Notes under the pieces: model-generated
What the model saw: only the letters and a program-made list of their open reading frames with translations
What the model was told of the DNA's origin: nothing
Database searches by the model: none
Translations under genes and position numbers: made by a program
Shown: one piece after another, positions 1 to 39,247 of the stretch
How positions within the stretch are numbered: position 1 is the stretch's first letter
Layout: each line of letters begins with the position of its first letter
Origin: an uncultured bacterium
GTDB taxonomy: Bacteria; Patescibacteriota; Minisyncoccia; UBA6257; 2-01-FULL-56-20
Length of the DNA stretch: 64,000 bases
Assembly: GCA_963696395.1 (NCBI GenBank)
Contig: CAVOJZ010000002.1
Location: forward strand, 6,433-70,432
Direction of reading: 5' to 3'

Positions 1-704
<704 letters not shown>

Positions 705-708
<4 letters not shown>

Positions 709-914
709 GCGTCGACGAGGGGCTCGCCGAGCTCGCCGCGGAGATCGACGCGCTCGCCGAGCGCCTGGCGGATCGCTCCTTGGAGCTCCTTCGCACCGCG
801 GTCCGCGAGGGGCCGACCACGGAGGCGGCGCGGCGCGAGAAGCTCGTGACCCGGGCTCGGCGATCCCTCGAGAAGGCCGCGACGCTGCTGCGCGGCCTCG
901 ACGACGAGCGATAG
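705..914 (+). CDS. Small hypothetical helical protein (about 69 aa), GTG start overlapping the upstream stop (GTGA)
   Basis: In-frame segment VSVDEGLAELAAEIDALAERLADRS...GLDDER inside ORF 39..914. High-GC DNA yields long ORFs by chance, so support is weak. Confidence 0.2.
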
Positions 915-918
915 GACG

Positions 919-1810
919 TCAGTACTCGTTGAGCGCGTCGATGAGCGCGCGCAGCCGCGCGTAGCTGAACTTGTCGAAGCGCAGCGCCACCCGCGCGAGG
1001 TCGAGGTGGTCGTGATCGGATCGCTCGGGCGGCAGGGGCTGGGTCGAGCGGATCCTCCCTGACACCGTGATGTCCTTGAACTGCTCGGACAGCTCGAGCA
1101 GCGCCGCGTCGTCGGGGAGCCGTGCGAGGCGCAGCACGAGCAGGTCCCCGACCCATCGGGCGGAGTGGTAGTTGCGGTAGTAGCGCTGGATCTCCGCGCA
1201 CGCCTCGTGCACGCTCGTCGCGATGCGGAAGAACGCGAGGTCGGGCACCGAGACGTAGCCGCGCGCGACGACCTCCTCCTCGACGAAGCGGAGCCAGGCG
1301 TGCCAGAACCCCTCCGCCGGGGGTCTCGACGAGGACGACCGGCGCGGGCTCGGCCTTCCCGGTCTGCAGGAGCGTCAGGAGCTCGAAGCACTCGTCGAGG
1401 GTGCCGAAGCCGCCCGGCAGGACGACGTAGGCGTGAGACTCCTTGATGAGCATCAGCTTGCGCGTGAAGAAGTAGCGCATCTCGACGAGCTTCGGGTCCT
1501 GTGCGATGAACGCGTTCGCGCCCTGCTCGTGGGGGAGGCGGATGTTCACGCCGAAGGAGCGGTCCCGGCCCGCGCCCTCGGTGCCCGCGGCCATGATCCC
1601 GGGGCCCGCGCCGGTCACGATCATCCAGCCGTCCGACGCGAGCTGGCGAGCGAGGTCGCGTGCGAGCACGTAGATCGGGTCCTCGGGTGCGGTGCGCGCC
1701 GAGCCGAACATCGTGACCTTGCGCACGTTGCGCCAGGGACGGAAGACCTCGAAGGCCTCAGCCATCTCCTTCAGCGCGGTGTCGGCGATCTTCAGGTCGA
1801 GGGTGTCGAC
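919..1810 (-). pseudogene. LOG family protein (TIGR00730-type Rossmann fold), frameshifted
   Basis: MFGSARTAPEDP...VTGAGPGIMAAGTEGA...VVLPGGFGTLDECFELLTLLQTGK...VETPGGG is read in the frame of ORF 596..3259 (M at 1711 or 1765). The C-terminal part continues in a different frame (ORF 919..1248), so there is at least one frameshift near 1250-1310. Confidence 0.6.
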
Positions 1811-1899
1811 TGTCCACGCGCGCGAGCTGCACCACGGTCTCGAACATGGACACGACGAGGTCACGCTGCTGTCGGGCAGAGCCCTGCACCTGCGACGAG

Positions 1900-4212
1900 C
1901 TCGTCGACGACGGTCCGGACGCGCTCGTCGGTCGTCATGCCGTCGGGCGTAGAGGGTGGTGCGCTGCACGCAGCGGCCGACCGAGCGGGCGCGACGATGG
2001 CTCGCGAGCTCGTCGACGCCCATGCCCTGCCCGTGCGCCGCGCCCGCGGCGCGCGAGATGTTCTCGTCCATCAGCGTGCCGCCGAGGTCGTTGGCGCCCG
2101 CGACGAGCACCTGGCGCGAGCCCTCGGCGCCGAGCTTCACCCAGGAGACCTGGATGTTGTCGATGGCGCCGGCGTAGCGCGAGCCGCCCGACGGCGTGCA
2201 TGAGGAGCGTCTCGCGGAAGGTCGGGCCGCTTCGCGCGCCATGCCGCGCAGGTAGATCGGCGTCGCCATGTGCACGAACGGGCAGCGGCACGAACTCGGT
2301 GAAGCCGCCCGTGCGCCGCTGGAGCTCCCGCGTGCGCGAGCAGGTGTCGCGCCCAGCGAGCGCGGCTGCTCGACGGCGCCGAACATGATCGTGACGTTCG
2401 AGCGCAGCCCGACCGACGTGGGCGGTCTCGTGCACCTCGAGCCACTGCGTCGGTGTTGATCTTGTCGGGGCACAGGACCTTGCGCGACCTCGTCGTCGAG
2501 GATCTCGGCGGCCGTGCCCGGCAGCGTCTTCAGCCCGGCGTCCTTCAGGCGCGTCAGGTACTCGGCAGCGACACGCCCGAGCGCCGCGCGCCCTCGAAGC
2601 ACCTCGAGCGCGCTGAAGGCGTGAATGTGGATCGTCGGGCGAGCCCTCCCGGACCGCGCGCAGCGACGTCGAGGTAGTAGTCGCCGTCGAAGGACGGGTG
2701 GATCCCGCCCTGCAGGCAGACCTCGGTGCGCCCGCGGTCCTCGGCCTCGCGCGACCCGGCGCGCGACCTCCTCGAGGTCGAGCAGGTACGGGTCGCCGCG
2801 CAGGTTGAGCGAGAGCGGTCCCTTCGAGAACGCGCAGAACCGGCACTTGAAGGTGCAGACGTTCGTGTAGTTGATGTTGCGGTTCACGACGTAGGTGACG
2901 TCCTCGACCATTGACCTCGCGCCGCAGGCGTCGGCGCGCCTCGGAGATCGCGTCGACGTCGCCGCCGCGCGCGCTGAAGAGCGCACGAGCTCGTCCTCGC
3001 CGAGCTCGTGACCCGAGCGCACGCCGGCGAGCACCTCGGCGACCGCGCCGCGGACCGACGAGCGACGCGGCGCCGCACCGGCGGCGGCGGCTCGGCGCCC
3101 CCGAGACCCAGGCGTCGTCGCGGCCGTAGCCGTCGGCGTCGTCGGAGCTGGAGGACCTTGGGCGCAGGGCAGCGTCGAGCCACCGCTCCGGGTCGACGCG
3201 CCACCTCGGGGTAGACCGTGAGCCGCGGGGCGAGCGCGAAGCCCGCGCTCGATCGACACCGTCGCGAGCGTGCTCGAGCTGCGGCCAGGCGCGCTCGGGG
3301 TTCACGTGGTCGAGCGTCACCGGCGAGATGCCCGCCGAGGTCGTCGGTGCCTGCGTCGACGATCGAGTCGGGTCGTCGCACGAGGTTGGGCGGTGCCTGG
3401 ACGTGGACGCGTTGGGCAGGAGCAGGCGCGCGGCCGCGATCGTCCAGAGCAGCTCCTCGAGCGGGGCCGGCGGCCAGTCGGCCATCGGGGTCCTCGGCTT
3501 CGGCAGGAAGTTCTGGACGATCACCTCTTGGACGTGGCCGTGGCGCTCGTGGCGACTCGGCGATCGCCGCCAGCGCGCTCAGACGGTCGGCGCGGTCCTC
3601 GCCGATCCCGACGAGCACGCCCGTGGTGAACGGGATGGCGAGCTCGCCGGCGAGCGCGAGCGTCGCGAGGCGACGCTCGGGCGTCTTGTCAGGGGCCAGG
3701 CGGTGCGCGTCGAGGTCGTCGCGCAGCGACTCGAGCATCATCCCCTGGCTGGCTGCGACCGCGCGCAGCGCGCGAGCTCGTCGCGGTAGAGGGCCCCTGC
3801 GTTCGCGTGGGGGAGCAGGCCCGTCTCGGGGAGCACGGCCGCGCAGGCCGCCGCGAGGTACTCGACGGTCGATCGCGTAGCCGTGCTGCCGCCAGCCACG
3901 ACGCGGCGTCGGCGTAGCGCAGCTCGGGTCGCTCGCCCAAGCGTGAAGAGGGCCTCGGTGCAGCCCGCCGCCGCGCCGCGCGCGCGCGAGGTCGAGGACC
4001 TCGTCGATCGACAGGTAGGGCGCGGCGAGGTGCGCCGGCGCCTTCGCGAAGGTGCAGTAGCCGCAGCGGTCCCGGCACAGCTCGGTCAGCGGGATGAAGA
4101 CCTTCGGCGAGTAGGTGACGGTCCGGCCGAAGAGTCGGTCGCGTCGCTCCCTCGCCACCTCGGCGAGCTCGCCGCTCGGCGCGTCGAGGAGGTCGTCGAG
4201 GACGATCACGGG
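1900..4212 (-). pseudogene. fbiC: FO synthase FbiC (fused CofG + CofH radical-SAM domains), multiply frameshifted
   Basis: CofG motifs (RTVTYSPKVFIPLTELCRDRCGYCTFAKAP; LGERPELRYADAAS; LWTIAAARLLLP) and CofH motifs (DVTYVVNRNINYTNVCTFKCRFCAFSKG; IHIHAFSALEV; NIQVSWVKLG...GANDLGGTLMDENISRAAGA; RTTLY) are scattered over three minus-strand frames (ORFs 2884..4440, 1935..3524, 596..3259). More than 6 frame changes are implied. Confidence 0.7.
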
Positions 4213-4225
4213 CGTCGGGGCCGGC

Positions 4226-5311
4226 TCACGCGACCGCCCGCTTCGAGTCGATCGTGGCGAGCAGCTCAGCGTAGCTGTCGGCGAACGACGCGACGCCCCG
4301 CTGCTCGAGCACCTCGGCGACGTCGTCCATCGAGACACCGGCGGCCTCGATCGCCTCGAGCGTCGCGTGCGCCTCGCCGACCTCGACGTCCACGGTCCTC
4401 GCGACGGTCCCGTGGTCGCGGAACGCCTCGATGGTCTCATCGGGCATCGTGTTCACCGTCGAGGGTCCGATCAGCGTGTCGACGTACAGGAGGTCGGCGT
4501 ACGCGGGGTTCTTCGTCGAGGTCGACGCCCAGAGCGGTCGCTGGGGCCTCGCCCCTGCGGCCGCGAGGGCCGCGAACCGCGCGCCGCCATGGTGCTCGGT
4601 GAACCGCTCGTAGGCGAGCTTCGCCTGCGCGACGGCGGCGCGACCCTTGAGCGAGCTCGGCGCGTGGAGCGCGTCGAGCCGCGCGTCGACCTCGGTGTCG
4701 ACCCTCGAGACGAAGAACGACGCCACCGAGGCGATCCGGTGCAGGTCCCGGCCTGCGGCCGCCGCCTGCTCGAGGCCGCCCATGAAGGCGTCCATCACCG
4801 CGACGTAGCGCTCGAGCCCGAAGATGAGCGTCACGTTGATGCTGATGCCCTCGGCGAGGAGCGCGGTGATCGCGCCGAGCCCCTCGACGGTCGCGGGGAC
4901 CTTCACGAGCAGGTTGTCGAGGGAGAACTTGGCCGACACCGCCCGCGCCGCGGCGATCGTGGCGTCGGTGTCGTGCGCGAGCGTGGGTGCGACCTCGAAG
5001 GAGACGAAGCCATCGGCCCCGTCGGACGACTCGTAGAGCGGCCGAAGCAGCGCCGCGACGTCGGAGATGTCGCGTCCGGCGAGCTCGACGAACGCCTCGT
5101 CGGACTTCGTGTCGCCGAGCGTGGCCACCTGCTCGTCGTAGAGGTCGGTCGCCTCGAGCGCCTTCGCGAAGATCGTCGGGTTGGAGGTGACGCCCCGGAT
5201 GCCCTCGTCGACGAGGGTCGCCATCGTGCCGTCGCGGAGCCAGTCGCGCCGGATGTTGTCGAGCCAGGGGCTCTGGCCACCGTGGTCGAAGAGCGAGGCG
5301 AGCGTGGTCAT
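4226..5311 (-). CDS. tal: Transaldolase
   Basis: Uninterrupted 361-aa ORF with transaldolase motifs (SPWLDNIRRDWL, GVTSNPTIFAKAL, actinobacterial-type length). Its start overlaps the tkt stop. Confidence 0.9.
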   Translation of the reverse strand: MTTLASLFDHGGQSPWLDNIRRDWLRDGTMATLVDEGIRGVTSNPTIFAKALEATDLYDEQVATLGDTKSDEAFVELAGRDISDVAALLRPLYESSDGADGFVSFEVAPTLAHDTDATIAAARAVSAKFSLDNLLVKVPATVEGLGAITALLAEGISINVTLIFGLERYVAVMDAFMGGLEQAAAAGRDLHRIASVASFFVSRVDTEVDARLDALHAPSSLKGRAAVAQAKLAYERFTEHHGGARFAALAAAGARPQRPLWASTSTKNPAYADLLYVDTLIGPSTVNTMPDETIEAFRDHGTVARTVDVEVGEAHATLEAIEAAGVSMDDVAEVLEQRGVASFADSYAELLATIDSKRAVA

Positions 5312-6021
5312 GCGCCGAGCAGCTCCTTCACCGTTGACGCGACGGCGGACGCCGTGAAGCCGAAGAACTCGAGCGCCACGTCACCAGGGGCGCTCACGCC
5401 GAACGTGTCGATGCCGATGGACTCGTCGGCGTAGCGCTCCCAGCCGAGCGTGACCCCCGCCTCGACGGAGAGGACGGGCAGGTCCTCGGGGAAGACGGAC
5501 GCCTGGTACTCGAAGCTCGTCGCGTCGAACCACTCCCAGCACGGCATCGAGACGACCCGGACCGGCATCCCCGCGGCCTCGAGGGGCGCCGCCGCCTCGA
5601 GGCAGAGGTGCACCTCGCTGCCCGTCGCGACGAGCGTCGCCTGGGCGCCGGCCGGGTCCGAGAGCACGTACGCGCCGTCGAGGGGGGTGCCCACGGCGGG
5701 GTGCAGCACCTCGTCGAGCACCGGCAAGGCCTGGCGCGACAGGATCATCGCCGCCGGGCCGTCGACGGCCAGGAACGCGTCGAACACCGCCTCGCACTCG
5801 TTGGCGTCCGCGGGGCGGATCACGTCGAGCCCGGGGATCGCGCGCAGCGAGCACAGCTGGTCGACCGGCTGGTGGGTCGGGCCGTCCTGGCCGAGGCCGA
5901 TCGAGTCGTGGCTGAACAGGTACCGCACGGGCGCCTCGGAGATCGCCGCCACGCGGATCGCAGAGCGCATGTAGTCGGAGAACGCGAAGAACGTCGCGCC
6001 CACCGGGATGATCCCGCCGGA
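5308..6021 (-). CDS. tkt: Transketolase, C-terminal ~237 aa only (5' part absent; truncated at the GC-content junction)
   Basis: GGIIPVGATFFAFSDYMRSAIRVAAISEAPVRYLFSHDSIGLGQDGPTHQPVDQL...RPADANE...VVSMPCWEWF... are transketolase TPP/C-terminal domain motifs. The ORF is continuous into low-GC DNA, which encodes an unrelated protein. Confidence 0.85.
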   Translation of the reverse strand, partial: SGGIIPVGATFFAFSDYMRSAIRVAAISEAPVRYLFSHDSIGLGQDGPTHQPVDQLCSLRAIPGLDVIRPADANECEAVFDAFLAVDGPAAMILSRQALPVLDEVLHPAVGTPLDGAYVLSDPAGAQATLVATGSEVHLCLEAAAPLEAAGMPVRVVSMPCWEWFDATSFEYQASVFPEDLPVLSVEAGVTLGWERYADESIGIDTFGVSAPGDVALEFFGFTASAVASTVKELLGA

Positions 6022-6753
6022 AAGGTTTGCAATAAATATTTTTCCGGAATCCATAATGTCTCGCATATTGATCGTCGAACGTGACTGGCCTAAAATATTC
6101 CGGATGAGCGGATTTGAAACGAACTGCCCGACTTTGTTTTGGATCGCCGCCAATGCTTCGGTTTCCAATTTTTGCGAATAGCGCGCAAACTCATTCTGCC
6201 AGAAAGCCTTGATGATCGGATCTTTCAGGTTATCTACGATATTTTTTCGGTACGGCGGCTCCGAAAACATGCGCAAAACGCCAAGCAACGTTGAGCCGGG
6301 GTATTCGAGAAGGGCAAGCAACGTATTGTTTAAAATGTATTCCATGCGCGCCGACCATGCGTCAACCCAGATTTTCTTGAAAACACCCATGATGCCCGAA
6401 GCGACCAGATGGCGGAACTCGGTCCCGACCTGTTCCATTGGGTTAAACGCAACCGGGTGCTCCATGTCCGAAGGATCGAAATAGATGACGTCATCGAGCC
6501 GATTCTCGGGAATAAAATCCAAAAGCATTTCGGCGGATGAACCGTGCGGATCGATAAAGGCAATTCCTTTCCCCGATTTAATGTCGGCGATCGCCATATT
6601 CTCAAGGAGCGTACTTTTTCCGACCCCTGTTTTTCCCACCACATATACGTGGCGCCGGCGGTCATCAAGTTTGATGCCAAATTTTTGCTCTTTATTGCCC
6701 CTGAAATTATGGAATCCGAGCGGGGTGATGTCTTTGTTTTGGTCGTGTGGCAT
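6022..6753 (-). CDS. Type IV secretion coupling-protein-like ATPase (TraD/VirD4/TraG family), N-terminal ~243 aa, truncated at the junction
   Basis: Walker A VVGKTGVGKSTLL is followed by IAFIDPHGS (a DPKG-type motif of T4SS coupling proteins). Low-GC codon usage. The C-terminus is missing. Confidence 0.6.
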
Positions 6754-6756
6754 TGG

Positions 6757-8073
6757 TTATTGTAATTCCTCTTCTTCAATGACCGGCAGCGATGCCGGTG
6801 GACTACCTTTGCGGGAACCGATCTTTTCAAGTTCGGTGGTGGAAACCGTGCCAAGCGGAAAATGGAAAAGGGTCGCGAGCTCCTCGGTGTTAAAGACAGC
6901 TGTTGGTGATCCGTGGAGAATATTTTTGTAATGTTCGTAGAGAAGTCGCTTCCGCCAGGCGAGACGAGTTTTTTTAAATAATCCTTTCACCGCATAACCC
7001 GCGGTCGTAGTCGACTTCTCCGGTTTTAACTGCTGAAGGTTTTGTGTATTAAACTGGCGCATAAAACCATGGAGTGAGTTGATATAGCCCGAATCGGGCG
7101 ACGCAACATCCCTCTGGGTGATTACTACAAATCGGACCGTCGTATCAAACGAAAGTTTGGCAATTTTCTGCTGGATTGCATCGCCGCGCTCCTTGTCATG
7201 GGGCGAAAGCAAAAGCCGCGGAAACTTGTCCTTTTCCTCTTTTTTCGCAGCCCGTTCACCGGGATGCTGAAACGGTGCCCGCACAACATCTTCGGCGGTG
7301 AAGCCAAGATCGAATCCCGCGAAAACTCCTTTCTTTTTTTCTTCAGTCAGGCCATACATTTTATCGAGCGCAGCCTTTCCCGCCTTAAACGTAGTCTCGC
7401 CAGCCGGACGAACAAGAACCTGATACCAGATTTGTTCGCCCTCTTTCAATTTTGACATGATCTCCATGAGGCCGGCGATTGGATCAAGTCTTTGCTCCTC
7501 GACGCTTTCCTCGAACATTGGATAGGTCCGGATTGGGAAATAAGCTTCGTGGCGCTGGACTTCTTCAAATCCGGAAAGGTCAAAGTTACGGTTCGGGATG
7601 ATCTTCGGCATTTCGTCCAGATAGTCATCCGCTTCGGTGATTTCCGCGTCGGGATACTGACCGTAAATCGCCGACTCAATCATATTCCGATATTCATCCG
7701 GAACGCGTAGGTAAAAATGTGTCTCCCCTACCCGCCCAATCAACTCGAATGACATCCAATATTCATCTCTGCCTTGTATGTATTTTTGAAACCAACTATA
7801 GCCATAGGAATACGGAGCGTGGGCGGCGGCAAAGATCTGCTCCATGGCCTTCGGTGTTTTTAGAATATTTTTAGGAACTTTAAGCTCCAACAACGTCCAG
7901 TGAATATGGTGTACCCACTTGTGATGCAAATAAAGATGCCAGGCTTCCCAAAAAACGATGATCGCAATAAGGGGCGCAGCAAACCACCAGACCGCCTCCC
8001 AGACGGCCCATATACTGCCCAGAATTCCCAGAACGAAAGACGGCAATGTTGGCAATGAAAAGAAATTAGACAT
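6757..8073 (-). CDS. Membrane protein (N-terminal TM segments plus large soluble domain), hypothetical; operonic with the TraD-like ATPase
   Basis: 438-aa ORF with hydrophobic N-terminus (FVLGILGSIWAVWEAVWWFAAPLIAIIVFW). Its stop lies 3 bp from the ATG of the downstream ATPase gene. Confidence 0.6.
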   Translation of the reverse strand: MSNFFSLPTLPSFVLGILGSIWAVWEAVWWFAAPLIAIIVFWEAWHLYLHHKWVHHIHWTLLELKVPKNILKTPKAMEQIFAAAHAPYSYGYSWFQKYIQGRDEYWMSFELIGRVGETHFYLRVPDEYRNMIESAIYGQYPDAEITEADDYLDEMPKIIPNRNFDLSGFEEVQRHEAYFPIRTYPMFEESVEEQRLDPIAGLMEIMSKLKEGEQIWYQVLVRPAGETTFKAGKAALDKMYGLTEEKKKGVFAGFDLGFTAEDVVRAPFQHPGERAAKKEEKDKFPRLLLSPHDKERGDAIQQKIAKLSFDTTVRFVVITQRDVASPDSGYINSLHGFMRQFNTQNLQQLKPEKSTTTAGYAVKGLFKKTRLAWRKRLLYEHYKNILHGSPTAVFNTEELATLFHFPLGTVSTTELEKIGSRKGSPPASLPVIEEEELQ

Positions 8074-23574: not shown

Positions 23575-24762
23575 TTATTTGATCCCCTGTGAAATCGAAT
23601 AAATCGGTGTGATGATTGAAAGGGCGACAAAGCCGACCAGGAGACCCATCAGCAATAACATCAACGGTTCGATAAGCGACGTAAGCGAATGAAGTTTGTT
23701 ATCCACCTCTTCGTCGTAATACGTCGAAAGGTATTCCAGGTTTTCCTCAAGATTGCCGGTTGTTTCACCAATCAACACCATGCCCGAAACAAGCGGCGGG
23801 AAAAGCTTCTTGTGAGTGCCGATATACGATCCGATCTGTGCTCCGGTTCTGACTTGTTCCCCTGCGGCAAGAATAATTTTTTTATAAACCAGATTGTTGA
23901 AAGTCGCCGCGGTGATATCCAGCGCTTCAACAATTTTCACGCCGCTTTTCAAAAGCAATCCGAAAACCCGTGTAAAATTCACCATGTTTACGCCTATTGA
24001 AAGATCGGAAACTACGGGCACGATCAAAATCAATCGGTCGAGCATGTATCGCACAAATTGCACTCGTGAGGTCACAATTCTCACGGCAATAACGAAAATA
24101 ATGAGGCCGATAAAAACCTGGATCCCGTAACTCTGCAAAAAGTGGAGGGAGTTAAGCATGATGACGGTCGTGAGCGGCAAACTCACATTCATGCTCGCGA
24201 ATACCGGGATAAGCTTTGGAAAAACGTAGAAGGTTAAAAATCCGGCGACGCCGATTGTCATGCATAAGATGACAAGTGGATAAACCATCGCCGATCGTAC
24301 TTTGGTTTCAAGCTGTTTCGAGCGATCCAGCTCTCCGGCAAGGTATAGCAAGTTTTTCGCAAGCGTTCCGCTCGCCTCCCCTACCCGCACGATGTTTACA
24401 AAAAAATCGCCGAAAAGAAATTGATACTTTTGGAGTCCGTCGGCTAAAAATTTGCCGTTATTGACGTCGGCAATCAAACTGTCCAGGACCCTTTTCAGAA
24501 CCTTCGACTCAGTCTGTGATTGGATAATTTTTAATCCTTCATAGATCGGGAGGCCCGCCTTAATGACAAGCGACAAGTGGCGGGCAAAATTGATGCGATC
24601 CTGCACGGTAATGCGGTCGAACCAGTGCGAAAGCGTGCCCGGCTTCCCGATTTTCTTTATCGGCTTCGGCGGCGGTTCGGGCTTGGGTATCACTGCAATT
24701 TTTGAAACTTCGGGTTGTTCCATGATGGTTCTATTCGTGGACGACACGGAGGATTTCTTCAA
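23575..24762 (-). CDS. pilC: Type IV pilus assembly platform protein PilC (GspF family)
   Basis: 395 aa, duplicated GspF-type domains, polytopic. Confidence 0.85.
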   Translation of the reverse strand: MKKSSVSSTNRTIMEQPEVSKIAVIPKPEPPPKPIKKIGKPGTLSHWFDRITVQDRINFARHLSLVIKAGLPIYEGLKIIQSQTESKVLKRVLDSLIADVNNGKFLADGLQKYQFLFGDFFVNIVRVGEASGTLAKNLLYLAGELDRSKQLETKVRSAMVYPLVILCMTIGVAGFLTFYVFPKLIPVFASMNVSLPLTTVIMLNSLHFLQSYGIQVFIGLIIFVIAVRIVTSRVQFVRYMLDRLILIVPVVSDLSIGVNMVNFTRVFGLLLKSGVKIVEALDITAATFNNLVYKKIILAAGEQVRTGAQIGSYIGTHKKLFPPLVSGMVLIGETTGNLEENLEYLSTYYDEEVDNKLHSLTSLIEPLMLLLMGLLVGFVALSIITPIYSISQGIK

Positions 24763-25960
24763 TTGAGGTGAGTCCGAGCGATGCTTTACGCAGCGAGTCC
24801 TCGATCATCGTCGTCATTCCCTCCTTCAACGCCGCTTCTTTAATCTCCTGCGCCGTTGCCCGATTCATAATCAACTGGCGGATACTGTCGGTCACCTCAA
24901 GAACTTCGCGCACGCCGAGACGACCCTGGAACCCGCTGCCGTTGCACTCCGCACATCCCTGCGCCCTGTAAAACTTCATTTCGGGACGCAGCGTGGGAAT
25001 AAGCTCCATCAGACTTTTGAATTCGTCGAGTGAAAGCTTCCGGTCGGCTTTGCACTTTTGGCAAAGCTTTCGAACCAGTCGTTGCCCGATCGCAACATTC
25101 ACGGTTGACGCGACGAGGAATGACGGCACGCCCATATCGAGCAACCGCGGGAACGTTGTCGCCGAATCGTTCGTGTGGAGCGTGGAGAGCACCAGGTGGC
25201 CGGTTAAAGCTGCGTTCACGGCGATGCCAGCCGTTTCTTCGTCGCGGATTTCGCCGACCATCACAATATTAGGATCTTGGCGCAGGATGGAACGCAGTCC
25301 GTTTGCAAAAGTAAATCCGATTTCCGCATTCGTTTGAATCTGGGTAATGCCATCGAGCGAATACTCAATCGGATCTTCGATGGTGATGATCGAAACTTCC
25401 GAACTGTTTAATTGCTTGAGTAACGTATAGAGCGTTGTGGTTTTACCGGAACCCGTGGGACCATTCGCCAGGATCATGCCATACGGCTTCCCGACAGCGC
25501 CGACAACTTTCTTAAGGTCTGCCGGACTGAATCCTAAATCTTTCAACTCATAATTTTGCGTTCCGGCCAATACACGTAGAATGGCATTCTCTCCATAGTA
25601 GGTCGGGATGATCGAAACACGGACGTCAACGTCTCCGAAATCTTTTATTTCGATGCGAAGCCGTCCGTCCTGCGGCAACAAGTGTTCATCGGTGCGGATT
25701 CCCGAAAGCACTTTGATGCGACTGATGATCTCCGGATGTAATTTGATATCAATCTTCTTCGGGAAGACATCGTACAAAAGGCCGTCGATGCGGTACCGAA
25801 CCCGTAATGCGTCTTTGGTTGGTTCGATGTGAATGTCGGATGCGTTCGCAATGTAAGCGTACTCAACGAACAAATCGACGAGGTTAATGATGGAAATACT
25901 CTCAAGCGGTTCCTCGAGTAATTTCTCAATAATAGGAGCAAGCGATTTGATATCGCGCAT
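24731..25960 (-). CDS. pilB: Type IV pilus assembly ATPase (PilB/GspE family)
   Basis: Walker A NGPTGSGKTTTLYTLL, Asp box, His box and a CxxC tetracysteine (CQKC...CAEC). Confidence 0.85.
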   Translation of the reverse strand: MRDIKSLAPIIEKLLEEPLESISIINLVDLFVEYAYIANASDIHIEPTKDALRVRYRIDGLLYDVFPKKIDIKLHPEIISRIKVLSGIRTDEHLLPQDGRLRIEIKDFGDVDVRVSIIPTYYGENAILRVLAGTQNYELKDLGFSPADLKKVVGAVGKPYGMILANGPTGSGKTTTLYTLLKQLNSSEVSIITIEDPIEYSLDGITQIQTNAEIGFTFANGLRSILRQDPNIVMVGEIRDEETAGIAVNAALTGHLVLSTLHTNDSATTFPRLLDMGVPSFLVASTVNVAIGQRLVRKLCQKCKADRKLSLDEFKSLMELIPTLRPEMKFYRAQGCAECNGSGFQGRLGVREVLEVTDSIRQLIMNRATAQEIKEAALKEGMTTMIEDSLRKASLGLTSIEEILRVVHE

Positions 25961-26005
25961 GATTTCATTGTATCATAAGACCGCGCGCGTTCTTCCGTAT
26001 TATTT

Positions 26006-26076
26006 TGCCGGGTCGTCTAATGGTAGGACAACGGACTCTGAATCCGTTTATCTTGGTTCGAATCCAGGCCCGGCAG
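26006..26076 (+). tRNA. tRNA-Gln (anticodon CTG), U1:A72, CCA not encoded
   Basis: TGCCGGG acceptor, D-arm GTCT/GGAC, anticodon stem ACGGA/TCCGT with loop CTCTGAA, T-arm CTTGG-TTCGAAT-CCAGG, 3' CCCGGCA-G. Confidence 0.85.
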
Positions 26077-26464
26077 CAGCAATCTGACTCAAGTCTTTTT
26101 CAGAAAAATTCAGCCGCGCTTCGCGGAGCGAAGCGTATGGTGGGGTGGGGGTAAATTCGATACGGCGGTTTTTGAGAAAGATGTTCGAGCCGAAAATTTG
26201 TTGAAGGGAGGTCTTTTTTGCAATTAGGTCGGTATTGGTTGCCGTTTCGGTAAGCAATACCGCGTTTTTTATCCATTCTCGCGTTGGTTCGAGCCAACTT
26301 CCGGCGTTCTGTTCAAGACGGGCTATTTGCTCCTCGACCGACTTCCTTTCGGAGAGTATCTTGGCACGTTTTTTAAGGTAACTTTCCCGCTCAATATCTT
26401 GCGCAAGATACGTATCGAGCAGTCGGTCGAACTTGCGGGAGAGGTCTTGCGCCTTTCCCCGCAA
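26048..26464 (-). pseudogene. Serine-recombinase-like C-terminal fragment (integrase remnant) abutting/overlapping the tRNA-Gln 3' end
   Basis: DRLLDTYLAQDIERESYLKKRAKILSERKSVEEQIARLEQ resembles the coiled-coil motif of large serine recombinases. There is no catalytic N-terminal domain, and the ORF runs into the tRNA. Confidence 0.4.
26060..26077 (+). repeat. Direct repeat copy 1 (tRNA-Gln 3' end; att-like)
   Basis: GAATCCAGGCCCGGCAGC. Confidence 0.5.
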
Positions 26465-26632
26465 CTCTTGAACGAACGCCGCCGTTTTTCTGGACTCGTC
26501 CAGGACTGGAATCGAACGAGCGGAAGGGGTCGGGGAACCGCGATCGGTTCCCCGTGTAGGAGGGCCGCGTTCTTACGCGACGGTTCGGAACCGAGGGTTC
26601 CGAAAGCGCAGACGCGAAGCGGCGAGCAGTGA

Positions 26633-26650
26633 GATTCCAGGCCCGGCAGC
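26633..26650 (+). repeat. Direct repeat copy 2 (17/18 identical to the tRNA-Gln 3' end; att-like)
   Basis: GATTCCAGGCCCGGCAGC, 573 bp downstream of copy 1. Confidence 0.5.
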
Positions 26651-26716
26651 TAGACAAAATAGCATTATTATGCTATTTTAATTTCGGTTCATTGCAAACA
26701 AAGAATTGGAGGTGTG

Positions 26717-27064
26717 ATGCACGAAATAATTGAAAATGCGACCGTGATGCTTCCCATTCGAGATATCCGCTTTGTAAATGGCGGACCATATCTCACACAA
26801 GAGACGCTCTTGGAACAACTCATTGAACTTGGCTTCCGTTTCGAGGGGGCAATAGATGAAGACGGACGTCAGTCAGCAACGCTACCGAAAGATTGGCTGT
26901 TCGATGGGGACCGGGAATCGACGCACTGGCACATCCACGACGATCGCGGCCGTCATCGAATGACGTACATCAAGAAAATTCCTTGGGGAAATCACGACTT
27001 TGTTCATTTCCTCATGATCGAACCAGCAATCCCCAACGCGAAAAGCATTTCCGACGGGTGGTAA
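26717..27064 (+). CDS. Hypothetical protein (about 115 aa), His-rich segment
   Basis: GGAGG lies 5 nt upstream of the ATG. The product has no family I recognise (HWHIHDDRGRH...H..H). Confidence 0.45.
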   Translation: MHEIIENATVMLPIRDIRFVNGGPYLTQETLLEQLIELGFRFEGAIDEDGRQSATLPKDWLFDGDRESTHWHIHDDRGRHRMTYIKKIPWGNHDFVHFLMIEPAIPNAKSISDGW

Positions 27065-34578: not shown

Positions 34579-35472
34579 CTATGCGATTGCCCCAATCGCA
34601 ATCGTTGCAAAAAGTATGACCATCACCGCAAGCGAAAAGAAAAACATTCTCTTTGCCCATTGGGTATTCGCCTGTGGATCATTAACGGTAAAACCGCTCG
34701 CGCTCATGGCAATCCAAGCGAGTCCAAGGACAAGCGTGATACCAAGATAGACTGCACCGGTATAGCCAAAAACAGTGAGAAGTGAGGCGGTAAATACAAA
34801 AGCGACAATATCGAGCAGCGTCGCGATTTTTGTTTTTTGCATTCCCCGCTTTATCGGGAAAACAGGGATTCCCGCGGCATCATAATCACCGACTCTCCGG
34901 ATCGCAATTGCATAGAAATGCGGGAGTTGCCACAACGCAAGCATAAAAAAGAGGATCACGGCCGCATCATCAATGCGACCGCTCACCGCACAATATCCGA
35001 CAACCGGCGGCGTAGCACCGGCAATCGCTCCGATAACAGTCCCGAAAATCGAACGGCGTTTAAACCATAAGCTGTACATGAATACATAAAAGAAAAATCC
35101 GAGTGCCGCCGCGCCCACGGTCGGCAAATTTGTAAAAAGAAAAAGGATGCCGAATCCGGCGATGCCGAGGACAGTGCCGAATGAGAGTGCTCCCGAACCC
35201 GAGACGCGACCCGTGACAATCGCACGATTTCTGGTTCGATCCATATGCGCATCTATGTCGCGGTCAATATAGTTGTTGAATACGCATCCGGACGCCATCA
35301 CGAGGCATATGCCCGCAATGGTTGCGACAAGTAACGGGAGGGCGATCATCGGCTGTAATCCCTGCCTTCCCGCAACAACACCTTCGGCAAGCATAAACCC
35401 GGCAATAACCGTGACGAGATTGCCGAACACCAGTCCGGATTTGGTTAATTCGTAATATGGTTTGATTGCCAT
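34579..35472 (-). CDS. cyoE: Protoheme IX farnesyltransferase (heme O synthase)
   Basis: UbiA-family polytopic protein immediately downstream of cyoABCD. Confidence 0.85.
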   Translation of the reverse strand: MAIKPYYELTKSGLVFGNLVTVIAGFMLAEGVVAGRQGLQPMIALPLLVATIAGICLVMASGCVFNNYIDRDIDAHMDRTRNRAIVTGRVSGSGALSFGTVLGIAGFGILFLFTNLPTVGAAALGFFFYVFMYSLWFKRRSIFGTVIGAIAGATPPVVGYCAVSGRIDDAAVILFFMLALWQLPHFYAIAIRRVGDYDAAGIPVFPIKRGMQKTKIATLLDIVAFVFTASLLTVFGYTGAVYLGITLVLGLAWIAMSASGFTVNDPQANTQWAKRMFFFSLAVMVILFATIAIGAIA

Positions 35473-35473
35473 T

Positions 35474-35839
35474 CTAAAAACCTCCTTGTTGTTGCTGCAT
35501 GTATTGGTCGACTTGGGCCGGCGTCATGTTGTAATTCAGGTGATCCATGATCCAGATGGATCCGATAACAATGATAAGGACGAGCCCTATTGTGGCAAGG
35601 AAAATTCCAAGCTGTGAACGCCCTCCCTCTTTTGCATTAAGATGCAGAAAGAAAATGAGTTGGACGATGAGCTGAATCACGGCAAGCGCAAGAATCGTGG
35701 GGATGAGAACCGCATGGGATATTACCGAGTGCTCGGAACTTACGTGGATTTGCACCACAAGATATGCGGCGAGGGTAAGCAAAATCGAAAGCACATAACC
35801 GACGACGTACGATATGGTGGAATGATTATTGTTTTCCAT
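35474..35839 (-). CDS. cyoD: Cytochrome o quinol oxidase subunit IV
   Basis: 121 aa, 3 TM, position in operon. Confidence 0.7.
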   Translation of the reverse strand: MENNNHSTISYVVGYVLSILLTLAAYLVVQIHVSSEHSVISHAVLIPTILALAVIQLIVQLIFFLHLNAKEGGRSQLGIFLATIGLVLIIVIGSIWIMDHLNYNMTPAQVDQYMQQQQGGF

Positions 35840-35846
35840 GTCAGTG

Positions 35847-36419
35847 TTACAACGCGATGCCCATCAGATACACGATGGTAAATATAAATATCCAGATCAG
35901 ATCCAGGAAATGCCAAAAAATCGCAAGGCGATCCAGTTTTGAGATAGTTGATGGCGTGAGTCCCCGAACTTTGATTTGCACCATGGCGACAAGCATCCAC
36001 AACAGGCCGACCGCAATATGTAAGCCGTGAGTACCAACGAGGGTGAAGAAGGCGGAAAGAAATGCATTCGCCTGCGGGCCATTGCCGCCAGCGACCAATC
36101 GTGAAAATTCATTAAGCTCGAGAACCAGGAATGTAGCCCCAAACGCCATCGTGACGCCGAACCACGCCATCGCCTGATTGATTTTTCCACGATGGACGGC
36201 GATTGTCGCGAGACCGCAGGTAAAACTGCTCGTGAGTAAAATCAGGGTTTCCGTAAGCGCACCGTTCAGACTAAACAATGCATCGCCCGAAGGACCGCCG
36301 AAAGTATTATTCCGCAGGACCGCGTACGCCGCGAAAAGCGCCGCGAAAATAACAAGGTCGGTCATCAAATAGATCCAGAACCCGAAAATATATTTATCGT
36401 TTGTCTCGGGATTTTTCAT
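35847..36419 (-). CDS. cyoC: Cytochrome o quinol oxidase subunit III
   Basis: 190 aa, 5 TM, heme-copper oxidase subunit III-like. Confidence 0.85.
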   Translation of the reverse strand: MKNPETNDKYIFGFWIYLMTDLVIFAALFAAYAVLRNNTFGGPSGDALFSLNGALTETLILLTSSFTCGLATIAVHRGKINQAMAWFGVTMAFGATFLVLELNEFSRLVAGGNGPQANAFLSAFFTLVGTHGLHIAVGLLWMLVAMVQIKVRGLTPSTISKLDRLAIFWHFLDLIWIFIFTIVYLMGIAL

Positions 36420-38407
36420 GAGCGTTGTCGGGCAAGTTCCAATCGTTCGACCTCGGCAGCCGGCAATACATACTCGGTCTCCTCATCGAATGAACGAACG
36501 ATGAGGCACGTAATGGCGCCCACGAGGCCAAGAGCGGCAAGCCAGACGATATGCCAAACCATTGCAAATCCAAACAGAAAGACAAACCCCGAAAGATAAA
36601 TTGCCATTGCGGTATTTTTTGGTAACACAATGTCTTCATACTTCATCGGTGCCGCACGCCCCGCACTTCCTTCGAGTTGCTTTTGTTTTTTCATTTCCCA
36701 AAAAGCCTCGCGGCTGTGAACCTCCGGGATGACCGCAAAATTATAAAATGGCGCGGGCGATGCCGTTGACCATTCGAGCGATCGGCCGTTCCATGGATCG
36801 CCCGTGGTGTCCGTGTTTTCCTTTCGCTCCTTGACGCTCACGATCACCTGTATCACCTGCACAATAAATCCTGCGGCGATGATACAAACTCCGATGGCGG
36901 CGATGATGAAAAACGGCTGGAATCCTGTTGAGGCGTCGTAGTTATCGAGCCGCCGCTGGGCACCCATCGCTCCCAGAATGTAGAGCGGCGTGAATGACGT
37001 GAAGAATCCAACCAGCCACAACCAGAAAGCACGCTTCCCCCATTTCTCGTTAAGCTTGAATCCCATCACCTTGGGGAACCAATACGTAATGCCGGCGAAA
37101 ATGCCGAAAAGCGCGCCGCCAACGATCATCGTGTGGAAGTGCGCAACAAGGAATAGCGTGTTGTGCAGCTGGTAGTCTGCCGCCGGCGAGGCGAGCAAAA
37201 CTCCCGCCATACCGCCGAACGTGAATGTGCTAATAAAACCAATAAACCAATACATCGGTGTTTTAAAGGTGATCCTCCCGCGAAACATGGTGAGAATCCA
37301 GTTAAACATCTGAACACCGGTCGGTATGGCGATAAGCATGGTCGAAATGCCGAAAACAGCATTCACGTCCGCGCCCGAGCCCATGGTGAAAAAATGATGA
37401 AGCCAAACAAGGCATGCGAGGAGCGTGACAGACAACGTTGCACACACCATCGAAACATATCCATAGACACGCTTCTGTGAAAACGTTGCAACGACTTCCG
37501 AGTAGATTCCGAACGCGGGGATGACAAGAATGTAGACCTCCGGATGACCCCACATCCAGATGAGATTCACATACATCATTGGATTGCCGCCGAAGCCCGA
37601 AGTGAAAAAATGCATTCCGAAAAAACGATCGAGCCACAATAGCGTGATGGTCGCCGTGAGCACCGGGAACGTCGCAACAACAAGCGCCATACTTGCAAGC
37701 GTTGTCCAGACGAACATCGGCATCTTCATCAGCGTCATGCCCGGAGCGCGCATTTTTATGATGGTGACAAGAAAATTAATTCCTCCCAAAAGACTCCCAA
37801 GGCCGGAGATCTGCAGACTCCATATCCAATAATCCATTCCGGCACCGGGACTATAAACCAGCTCCGATAGCGGCGGCAGGGAAAGCCAGCCAGCGGCAGC
37901 AAACTGTCCACCCACCGCAAAGAACATATTAATGAGCAAGGCGCCGGCAACGTACAGCCAAAATCCGAGCGAATTGAGAAAAGGATACGCCAGGTCGCGC
38001 GCGCCAATCTGGAGAGGGATAATCAAATTCATAAAGCCGATGAAGAATCCCATCGCGACAAAGAAAACCATGATATCACCGTGCGCGGTAAAGATCTGCT
38101 GGAAATGGCCCGCGTCAAGATAACCGTGCGACGCACCAACCGACATCGCCTGCTGCGCCCAGATCATGGCGGCGTCCAATCCCCCACGGAAAAACATGAC
38201 GGCCGCAACGATGATATACATTACGCCGATTTTTTTCGGGTCGGTCGAGGTAAGCCACTCTTTCCAAAGCCATTTCCATCGCTTGTAATAGGTGACAACC
38301 GAAGCGGCAGCCACCCCCATAAGGAGGATCGTCGCCGTCGCACCAATCGTATACCATGCGTGAGGTATCGCATCCAACGTGAGGTTCCCAAAAATAAAGT
38401 GTTCCAT
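36416..38407 (-). CDS. cyoB: Cytochrome o quinol oxidase subunit I
   Basis: 663 aa with heme-copper oxidase subunit I motifs (WMWGHPEVYILVIPAFG; HHFFTMG). Confidence 0.9.
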   Translation of the reverse strand: MEHFIFGNLTLDAIPHAWYTIGATATILLMGVAAASVVTYYKRWKWLWKEWLTSTDPKKIGVMYIIVAAVMFFRGGLDAAMIWAQQAMSVGASHGYLDAGHFQQIFTAHGDIMVFFVAMGFFIGFMNLIIPLQIGARDLAYPFLNSLGFWLYVAGALLINMFFAVGGQFAAAGWLSLPPLSELVYSPGAGMDYWIWSLQISGLGSLLGGINFLVTIIKMRAPGMTLMKMPMFVWTTLASMALVVATFPVLTATITLLWLDRFFGMHFFTSGFGGNPMMYVNLIWMWGHPEVYILVIPAFGIYSEVVATFSQKRVYGYVSMVCATLSVTLLACLVWLHHFFTMGSGADVNAVFGISTMLIAIPTGVQMFNWILTMFRGRITFKTPMYWFIGFISTFTFGGMAGVLLASPAADYQLHNTLFLVAHFHTMIVGGALFGIFAGITYWFPKVMGFKLNEKWGKRAFWLWLVGFFTSFTPLYILGAMGAQRRLDNYDASTGFQPFFIIAAIGVCIIAAGFIVQVIQVIVSVKERKENTDTTGDPWNGRSLEWSTASPAPFYNFAVIPEVHSREAFWEMKKQKQLEGSAGRAAPMKYEDIVLPKNTAMAIYLSGFVFLFGFAMVWHIVWLAALGLVGAITCLIVRSFDEETEYVLPAAEVERLELARQRS

Positions 38408-38413
38408 TGGTCG

Positions 38414-39247
38414 TTACATATTCATGCCCGGCATCGCGGACATCGAGCTTGCCTGATTGGGTTGGGTTGATGTGGGTGCCATAAACTTCATCATAATACT
38501 ATCAAACAAATCCCCTTCCACCGAAGCAAAAGATGATGACGGATTGTCCTCGCTCGGCGCCGCCAGCTGATTATAAGCAGCTAGGTCAAGCGTGGTTGAC
38601 GCTTGCTTTGTGAGTTGCACCCATGCATCAAAATCTTCCTGCGATGTTGATTGCGCAATGAAATGCATTCCGGCATAACCGTCGCCGTTGATTTCGGTGT
38701 CTTTGCCCACAAACTCACCCATGGTCGTCGCCATGAGGTTGAGCTGGGTTTCCATGGCTGCCATGGCGTAGATTTGGCTGCCGAGCTGCGGGATCCAGAA
38801 TGAACTCATCGGAGCGTCCGCAGTAAGTTCAAAATGGACCGGTACGTTTTCGGGAAAACGAATGTAATTTACGGTCGCGATATTTTGAGCCGGATAGATG
38901 AAAAGCCACTTCCATGGCAACGCAACAACCTGTATGGTGAGCGGCTGCGCTGAGGATTGGATCGCTTGGTAAGGGTCGAGTGCATGTGCGCTTTTCCACG
39001 CAAGCGTCCCCAGGGTTGCGATCAAAGCCGCAGGGATCAACCAAAGCACAATCTCTCGCCATGCGCGATGGTTTCGCTCCGGGTCGTATATTGTATTCGG
39101 ATTTTCGGCCCGATATTTTCGGGCGACGATAAAAAGTGAAACAAAAAGAGGAATGACCACGATGAGCATGAGCAAAACCATATGGACGATCAGGTCTCGC
39201 TCTTGCGCCGCGATCGGACCCTGCGGATTGAAAAGGGCGACGTTCAT
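38414..39247 (-). CDS. cyoA: Cytochrome o quinol oxidase subunit II (no CuA site)
   Basis: SFWIPQLGSQIYAMAAMETQLNLMA matches CyoA. The CuA ligands (Cys-x-x-x-Cys, His) are absent, so this is a quinol oxidase rather than a cytochrome c oxidase. Confidence 0.85.
   Translation of the reverse strand: MNVALFNPQGPIAAQERDLIVHMVLLMLIVVIPLFVSLFIVARKYRAENPNTIYDPERNHRAWREIVLWLIPAALIATLGTLAWKSAHALDPYQAIQSSAQPLTIQVVALPWKWLFIYPAQNIATVNYIRFPENVPVHFELTADAPMSSFWIPQLGSQIYAMAAMETQLNLMATTMGEFVGKDTEINGDGYAGMHFIAQSTSQEDFDAWVQLTKQASTTLDLAAYNQLAAPSEDNPSSSFASVEGDLFDSIMMKFMAPTSTQPNQASSMSAMPGMNM

Follow-up and report, generated by a model that had tools for sequence, protein, structure and literature searches.

Islands of the type catalogued by Islander are recognized by an intact tRNA gene and a displaced direct copy of its 3′ fragment that together flank the island, and the 2015 paper on that resource states that no integrase of the serine family was known to have a tRNA gene as its target (PMC4383910). 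The DNA considered here is a stretch of 64,000 nucleotides (nt) from an uncultured Patescibacteria bacterium (contig CAVOJZ010000002.1 of GenBank assembly GCA_963696395.1), referred to throughout as the window. It contains a tRNA-Gln gene, a fragment of a large serine recombinase (LSR) gene that reads into the 3′ end of that tRNA from the opposite strand, and a second, displaced copy of the tRNA end. We consider it probable that this locus is an intact tRNA-Gln beside the dead stump of an LSR-driven Patescibacteria element, which would have been internally deleted and whose far end would lie at the right copy.

Several described systems invite comparison with this locus. In Firmicutes hosts, SCCmec elements are inserted by CcrAB at the 3′ end of rlmH/orfX, restoring the gene and leaving direct repeats of 15-18 bp. 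The SPbeta recombinase SprA has a protein-coding gene as its target. The closest precedent that we found appears, by analogy, to be the ssrA islands of Dehalococcoides (McMurdie et al. 2011, PMC3146451), in a paper that also summarises SCCmec insertion. In these islands the ~540-amino-acid DsiB is encoded on the reverse strand by attL, with the repeat inside the 3′ end of its gene; a direct repeat of ~20 bp corresponds to the tmRNA 3′ end, insertion has been inferred to take place in the T-loop, and decayed or integrase-less islands are on record (PMC3146451). Cis-mobilisable elements, which have kept their attachment (att) sites and lost their integrase, are treated in the same source (PMC3146451).

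The features of the locus, in window coordinates, are the following.

26006..26077, plus strand: intact tRNA-Gln(CTG) gene (ARAGORN; Rfam RF00005 at full length, 63.1 bits against a gathering score of 29).
26060..26077, plus strand: left copy of the 18-nt repeat, corresponding to tRNA nt 57-74, GAATCCAGGCCCGGCAGC.
26054..26494, minus strand: LSR pseudogene fragment, residues ~350 to the end (tblastn, homologues, PHROG 95).
26075..26232, minus strand: equivalent of the tRNA-side arm of the inverted duplicate found in relatives (relatives' arms; 121-nt spacing from IFGSN to the discriminator).
26495..26520, plus strand: inverted mimic of the tRNA-Gln 3′ half, in which 26500-26517 matches tRNA 26056-26073 at 15/18 positions on the opposite strand.
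26518..26632, strand not applicable: hairpin-rich spacer (GGGGAACCG..CGGTTCCCC; CGGTTCGGAACC..GGTTCCGAA; fold z = -3.8).
26633..26650, plus strand: right copy of the 18-nt repeat, identical at 17/18 positions, GATTCCAGGCCCGGCAGC, with T for A at tRNA position 59.
26656..26679, plus strand: AT-rich hairpin AAAATAGCA-TTATTA-TGCTATTTT followed by AATTT, read directly.

A preliminary description of this DNA, made from the letters alone, had placed a minus-strand open reading frame (ORF) between the two copies and taken its product for the C-terminal coiled-coil fragment of a recombinase without a catalytic domain. The ORF exists (26048-26464, 138 amino acids, TTG start) in a frame that stays open back to ~26569, with its stop codon (26048-26050) inside the tRNA gene, and its identity is borne out by homologues and tblastn. 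Profile searches gave a divided answer: Pfam found nothing significant for the 138-amino-acid ORF or its neighbours, just a sub-threshold match to the seryl-tRNA synthetase coiled coil, whereas PHROG 95, annotated as 'integrase', matched the fragment at E = 1.3e-4. A search of a large protein collection brought up 40 homologues. PF07508 and PF13408 occur in several of these, P0004, P0009 and P0019 included, as well as in the proteins of loci L001, L002 and L048. Full-length relatives have Resolvase (PF00239), Recombinase and Zn_ribbon_recom domains and the N-terminal serine motif YxRKSTDVEDKQ. When 66 of them were used as tblastn queries, the window was matched solely at 26006-26548, in a single frame; the recombinase-derived part of this match is 26054-26494, which is free of stops, and the rest is shared tRNA plus a weak upstream stretch. 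The best match, at 72% identity, was to residues 350-496 of the 526-amino-acid L001 protein, and dozens of other full-length members were 47-65% identical to the fragment.

The fragment is made up of the coiled-coil region followed by a conserved tail in which the WLEP, KIFGSN and PYASLREAR motifs occur, and no catalytic, recombinase or zinc-ribbon part is found in it. It is linked to the LSRs by this C-terminal and coiled-coil homology, with Resolvase, PF07508 and PF13408 absent from the window. There is no ATG in its frame, the earliest possible start being the TTG at 26464, and no promoter-like site was found for it on the minus strand. Without a catalytic domain, an ATG or a predicted promoter on its own strand, the stump is unable to recombine alone; the window holds a fragment of a recombinase gene, not a recombinase.

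The tRNA-Gln gene has the T-loop TTCGAAT (nt 54-60), CCAGG as the 3′ strand of the T-stem, CCCGGCA as the 3′ strand of the acceptor stem and G as the discriminator; read from the sequence, CCA is not encoded. Rfam, run over 25800-26900, matched the tRNA and no other family. The recurrence of the tRNA-Gln 3′ end downstream, which the preliminary description had pointed out, is confirmed at 17/18 positions: with up to 3 mismatches, on both strands of the whole window, the 18-mer has just these two matches, against 0.05 expected from shuffles. Their identical 15-nt core, TCCAGGCCCGGCAGC (26063-26077 and 26636-26650), spans T-loop nt 60 to nt 74, one base beyond the discriminator, and the 555 nt between the two direct copies are made up of the recombinase fragment and the spacer. 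The inverted third copy at 26500-26517 had been overlooked. At up to 3 mismatches, the T-arm/acceptor sequence 26056-26073 occurs at three places in the window, namely the gene, the direct copy and the inverted copy. The spacer, probably what is left of the inside of the element's far end, has no likeness to any fetched locus and matches no Rfam family. The hairpin that follows the right copy is likely the native tRNA 3′ flank or terminator and contains too few G-C pairs for a terminator scan to list it; a promoter-like match at 26651-26679 overlaps it and precedes an orphan ORF (26714-27064). The locus thus has the intact tRNA gene and the displaced 3′ fragment in direct orientation that characterize Islander-type islands, and no working integrase gene or cargo lies between its repeats.

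The relatives of the fragment form a family with a constant relation to tRNA genes. A scan limited to one genome per species gave 169 sites, of which 80 were fetched; almost all of the fetched loci come from Patescibacteria metagenome-assembled genomes (MAGs). In 50 of the 80, ARAGORN found the recombinase 3′ end overlapped by an opposite-strand tRNA gene, and several more have tRNA-like tails. The target tRNAs are of 25 kinds, most commonly Thr, Gln and Asn. Intact members have an LSR gene for a protein of ~500-560 amino acids, and in 54 of the 55 loci measured the IFGSN codons begin 118-121 nt from the tRNA discriminator. The window, at 121 nt, is in register with the family, and its recombinase gene likewise converges on a tRNA and reads into its 3′ end. 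The C-termini of homologues, GFEP or GIEP, are the reverse-complemented tRNA T-loop. Farther upstream, the WLEP codons (TGGCTCGAACC, window 26284-26305) also resemble a reverse-complemented T-loop; this stretch gives a recurrent match of 9-14 nt between gene and target tRNA at many loci, ~213 nt before the tRNA end, which could be a coincidence arising from the shared 'EP' codons.

Three members from a single Falkowbacteria MAG (MFD01188.bin.1.43), on three contigs, are particularly informative. These loci (L002, L003 and L006) have LSR genes that are 90-95% identical and sit at tRNA-Gln(CTG), tRNA-Gln(TTG) and tRNA-Asn(GTT), respectively, and their sequences diverge exactly at the tRNA. In another locus, L083, where PilB is 59% identical to that of the window, a tRNA-Gln likewise lies beside PilB, at a distance of 59 nt. 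A role for the tRNA as cargo of the element was rejected on the grounds of the three related elements at three tRNAs and of the tRNA-Gln beside PilB in L083; the tRNA is a host gene, not cargo.

Cargo is defence-like in the elements looked at. L001 has a Swt1-like HEPN protein with DUF5343 in the element itself and a GmrSD restriction enzyme nearby, L002 has a MORC-like ATPase, and AbiEii, a relaxase-like protein and a coupling-protein-like ATPase lie beside P0032. The stretches covered were L001 4303-8883, L002 1465-4454, L048 5818-6630 and the P0032 neighbourhood, and a PNP_UDP_1 phosphorylase was also among their products. No second recombinase was seen in L001, L002 or L048. No relative came up when the IMG/VR viral contigs were scanned with the family alignment, so there is no evidence that the family's elements are phages. 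Open-access literature was searched for serine integrases that target tRNA genes, occur in Patescibacteria or have terminal inverted repeats, and no account of the family was found. As a separate observation, the recombinase of one member from a Minisyncoccia genome adjoins a 'tRNA-Stop' with anticodon TTA according to ARAGORN (L047 9594-9669), possibly a UAA-reading suppressor tRNA.

Other members of the family have also been reduced to C-terminal stumps beside tRNAs (Lys, Val, Asn), at L009 9977-10480, L057 2415-3056, L164 9923-10600 (the same as L165) and L167 364-904. These break between residues ~303 and ~374, and the window at ~350, a clustering to which the way these loci were chosen may have contributed. 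They have no common break sequence, none has a T-arm mimic at the break, and their upstream DNA is unrelated.

The 3′-terminal 140-170 nt of the recombinase gene, up to the tRNA, occur again in inverted orientation 1.8-9.8 kb upstream in 56 loci. The two arms of one element are 76-100% identical (median 92%), compared with ~45-70% identity between the recombinases of different elements; examples are L002 5520-5651 and 10286-10417, L003 7128-7263 and 10286-10421, and L016 6850-7007 with the gene tail. The tRNA-side arm consists of the last ~53 recombinase codons and ends at the tRNA tip. The flank past the inner arm is conserved between unrelated hosts and has a T-loop-like CGAAC at index 18 (27 of 32 relatives), against index 14 for the T-loop on the tRNA side. 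Conserved DNA in L002, L003 and L006 runs for ~470 nt past the inner arm, up to a palindrome, and the inner arm is therefore internal rather than an element end. With this continuation and a flank that does not depend on the host, the view of the ~160-nt inverted repeat as the ends of an insertion sequence-like unit was rejected. A small protein with a recombinase tail, encoded by the inner arm, was rejected as well; the same frameshift is present in many copies, which makes the arm non-coding, and the upstream ORF is inconsistent.

The arms are not always arranged in the same way. In P0003, P0004, P0009, P0013 and L073 the recombinase tail is followed by the conserved flank (peptide LYxxxRTYFxxN) instead of a tRNA, L069 has the conserved flank on both sides, and L040 has a tRNA on the inner-arm side; therefore at least two arrangements exist. 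The sequences point to members of the L040, L069 and L073 type being an inverted or an unintegrated arrangement, or both. P0028 was grouped with the members that lack a tRNA after the recombinase tail. Among the three Falkowbacteria copies, arm-tip bases are swapped, and exchange between the repeat arms is suggested there; the L003 recombinase frame is disrupted. Just inside the inner arm (L016 ~7010-7050, L023 ~295-340), divergent elements have a conserved G+C-rich stretch. The run-on frame through it gives NTRTGGWGKCY or HAHGWVGQV, a hint of a conserved DNA or RNA element without coding function.

Set against this architecture, the window has the tRNA-side arm and lacks its partner: tblastn found no second recombinase-like stretch in the window, and a repeat search found no such inverted repeat. 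The missing arm may be read as lost by deletion. The intact ancestor would have had an LSR gene facing the tRNA and reading into its 3′ end, with the inverted tail duplicate farther inside. An internal deletion would then have taken LSR residues 1 to ~349, the inverted duplicate and any cargo, and would have joined LSR codon ~350 to the inverted tRNA-like half-site at 26495-26520. What would have been left of the far end is the spacer of ~115 nt and a copy of tRNA nt 57/60-74 at 26633-26650, past which the native tRNA flank would resume with the AT-rich hairpin. The junction fits such a deletion in that recombinase homology ends at ~26494 and the inverted tRNA-like copy comes directly after it. 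Counted from 26495, the window has GAC-TGGAAT-CGAACG at index 18, which is the geometry of the family's inner flank, with a boundary uncertain by ~6 nt and a short motif. The interval 26495-26520 probably marks one end of the internal deletion, which on the simplest reading would have stopped at or near the junction of arm tip and flank; the remnant extends as far as the right copy. We infer that this LSR carried out the integration, that a single internal deletion followed, and that the right copy was the far att site of the element.

Several results weigh against this history. When the DNA upstream of the recombinase was searched in 50 relatives, at three stringencies, for a direct copy of the tRNA end, L048 alone had one; at up to 3 mismatches in 14 there were 5 upstream matches in relatives and 6 on the control strand, which is no enrichment. 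Arm-to-arm identity extends into the last 2-5 nt of the tRNA in ~50 loci, and L002, L003 and L006 diverge exactly there. These boundaries point to an exchange of strands at the tRNA tip, in which case 15 nt would not be duplicated. Moreover, no empty site or close relative of the locus was found, the reading of 26495-26520 as a family inner flank would have to stand on a short motif with a loose boundary, and a join at 26128, inside the fragment, has no independent support.

The preliminary description had seen in the locus a decayed tRNA-targeted element with an attL/attR-like signature. The remnant itself stands, through the fixed distance of the recombinase to tRNA 3′ ends, and the 18-mer as a generic signature of the family does not (1 of 50 relatives). 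The 18-mer is real and linked to the element, and it is not the family's generic attL/attR mark. The L048 repeat reproduces all 14 nt of tRNA-Arg nt 60-73 without a mismatch. It lies at a distance of 7.57 kb, with a tRNA-Leu 37 nt from it, and it begins at the same tRNA position, nt 60, as the 15-nt core of the window. Two accounts of the repeat can be given. Exchange may have taken place, in the lineages of the window and L048, within a core of 14-15 nt that the element carried to rebuild the tRNA, by analogy with SCCmec and the Dehalococcoides ssrA islands, where exchange lies within a carried core. Alternatively, the family's boundaries suggest that exchange took place at the tRNA tip, and the far copy would then be a half-site mimic borne by the element or a relic of an older event. 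Short inverted repeats inside the direct copies (8/11 in L048; 7/8 in the window, with a 4-nt offset) were suggestive, disagreed in spacing and were not used.

The position of the family's boundary, in the last 2-5 nt of the tRNA, and the lack of enrichment for direct repeats would also suit a composite locus, in which an older island made the T-loop repeat by means of another integrase, since lost, an LSR element later entered at the rebuilt tip, and both decayed, so that the repeat is not an att site of the LSR. In L048, the unit from inner arm to tip (the recombinase and a small helix-turn-helix gene) measures 2.0 kb and occupies the tRNA end of a repeat-bounded stretch of 7.6 kb, as such a composite would have it. 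We nevertheless regard this explanation as unlikely. Between the repeats of L048, and between those of the window, there is neither a tyrosine integrase nor another recombinase, just ~115 nt of DNA that is not LSR-derived is left in the window, and the shared start at tRNA nt 60 would have to be a coincidence if unrelated integrases were at work. A repeat that arose by chance beside an unrelated ORF deserves almost no credence: it is short, and nothing else speaks for this explanation, whereas 0.05 matches are expected at up to 3 mismatches, three tRNA-like copies occur within 600 nt, and the fragment is in exact register with the family of 169 sites.

Decay of the fragment itself may be questioned, as it runs for ~147 codons without a stop or frameshift and could be maintained by selection as a short coiled-coil protein that, for instance, regulates or inhibits related recombinases. 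L081, an 809-nt ENA scaffold from another sample, holds at 308-638 a 331-nt piece that is 95% identical to 26105-26436, and over 109 codons the two differ by 14 synonymous and 2 non-synonymous changes, so that they have diverged under purifying selection; C-terminal-only stumps, moreover, recur with breaks in the range from residue ~303 to ~374. However, the purifying signal fits equally well with recent descent of both copies from working genes, which is how we read it, because the fragment has neither a start codon other than the TTG nor a promoter-like site. The flanks of the L081 piece are unrelated to the window, lying between the end of a sigma-factor gene of ~70% G+C and AT-rich DNA, and the scaffold is probably chimeric; the other stumps break elsewhere and have unrelated upstream DNA. 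A selected function is accordingly given little probability. Marginally less probable still is an assembly artefact that joined two LSR places through their shared recombinase sequence. It would account for the fact that, of two Logan contigs of run ERR11563597 (L082 and L163) that are both 100% identical to the window, one stops at 26127 and the other starts at 26129. This break of the short-read assembly inside the fragment suggests that related recombinase sequences coexist in the source sample, and a near-identical LSR piece does exist elsewhere (L081); the window also has a probable chimeric join near 6000. On the other side, the frame and the alignment of the fragment with full-length relatives cross 26128 without an indel, the source contig is 914 kb long, and a single independent Logan contig (26129-30871, 100% identity) takes in everything from the break through the inverted copy and spacer to the right copy and its flank. 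The decayed LSR element beside an intact tRNA-Gln remains our preferred reading.

The claim that the locus marks the start of an accessory island could not be upheld. The two sides alike have a G+C content of 0.49-0.50, and the repeat has no further copy. The next five ORFs past the repeat match no Pfam or PHROG family, and for the orphan ORF 26714-27064 a database-wide homologue search found the source genome only. Farther on are genes for a GGDEF protein, an ABC-F ATPase, a DEAD-box helicase and a cytochrome oxidase operon, none of which are mobile-element genes. When flanking ORFs were compared by tblastn with 161 fetched loci, no synteny was found. In a metagenome scan with PilB (24731-25960), the best relative was 62% identical, and L083, whose contig stops 175 nt past tRNA-Gln, was the only one to keep the tRNA there.

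Two further observations concern the rest of the window. Positions 34579-39247 hold a cytochrome oxidase operon of quinol-oxidase type (subunits II with COX_ARM, I, III and IV and a UbiA-family prenyltransferase), in an otherwise small-looking Patescibacteria genome (914-kb contig). Positions 1-6000 have a G+C content of 70-76%, against 46-52% in the other 58 kb, with a switch within ~100 nt near 5950-6050. The minus-strand ORF at 5308-6753 consists of a HerA/DUF87-like N-terminus on the low-G+C side fused to transketolase pyrimidine-binding and C-terminal domains on the high-G+C side, and the switch looks like a chimeric assembly join rather than biology.

The remnant in the window is ordinary genome debris, and the wider interest lies in the family. 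A tentative proposal, to which we give somewhat less than even weight, is that the three tRNA-like copies of the window are three half-sites of an undescribed, widespread Patescibacteria family that has ordinary tRNA genes of 25 kinds as its attachment sites and contains a tail duplicate with, next to it, a T-arm mimic shifted by 4 nt. With the same reserve, the deletion endpoint of the window would then coincide with one of these half-sites. Serine integrases are known for a 5-bp offset between attP and attB half-sites, which the 4-nt displacement of the family's T-arm mimic resembles. The inverted tail duplicate could serve inversion or regulation by RNA pairing, or belong to an unusually long attachment site. 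If confirmed, the family would be a main vehicle of gene flux in the reduced genomes of Patescibacteria. Serine integrases are the kind used for genome engineering, and the family would provide a natural set of related but distinct enzymes with very short, well-defined genomic targets.

Compared with the tyrosine-integrase islands at tRNA genes collected by Islander, the window has the same intact tRNA and displaced 3′ fragment, but its recombinase is of the serine family, and within that LSR family a direct repeat of the tRNA end is unusual. Cis-mobilisable elements resemble the window remnant in having kept both ends and lost the recombinase, and mobilisation by a related enzyme in trans is conceivable, the ends of the remnant being putative sites. 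SPbeta SprA/YokA has the same order of Resolvase, Recombinase, zinc ribbon and coiled coil as the family, and YokA is the nearest solved structure, with the L001 protein aligning to it over residues 6-391 at E = 1.5e-9; the last ~100 residues with the WLEP, KIFGSN and PYASLREAR motifs, which make up most of the window fragment, have no detectable match among solved structures. Unlike the family, SprA targets a protein-coding gene rather than a tRNA. SCCmec, compared by description, resembles the window remnant as a serine-recombinase element in the 3′ end of an essential gene with direct repeats of 15-18 bp, and unlike it has a protein-coding target, two recombinases and Firmicutes hosts. The DsiB islands, also compared by description, have a single tmRNA target, whereas the family uses ordinary tRNA genes of 25 kinds; they have a fixed module of six genes and a small serine recombinase as a second enzyme, neither of which was seen here, and no inverted duplicate of the recombinase tail of ~160 nt has been described for them. 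The family differs from the DsiB islands in its use of many ordinary tRNAs, in the lack of a companion recombinase in the three elements examined, and in its inverted duplicate of the recombinase tail.

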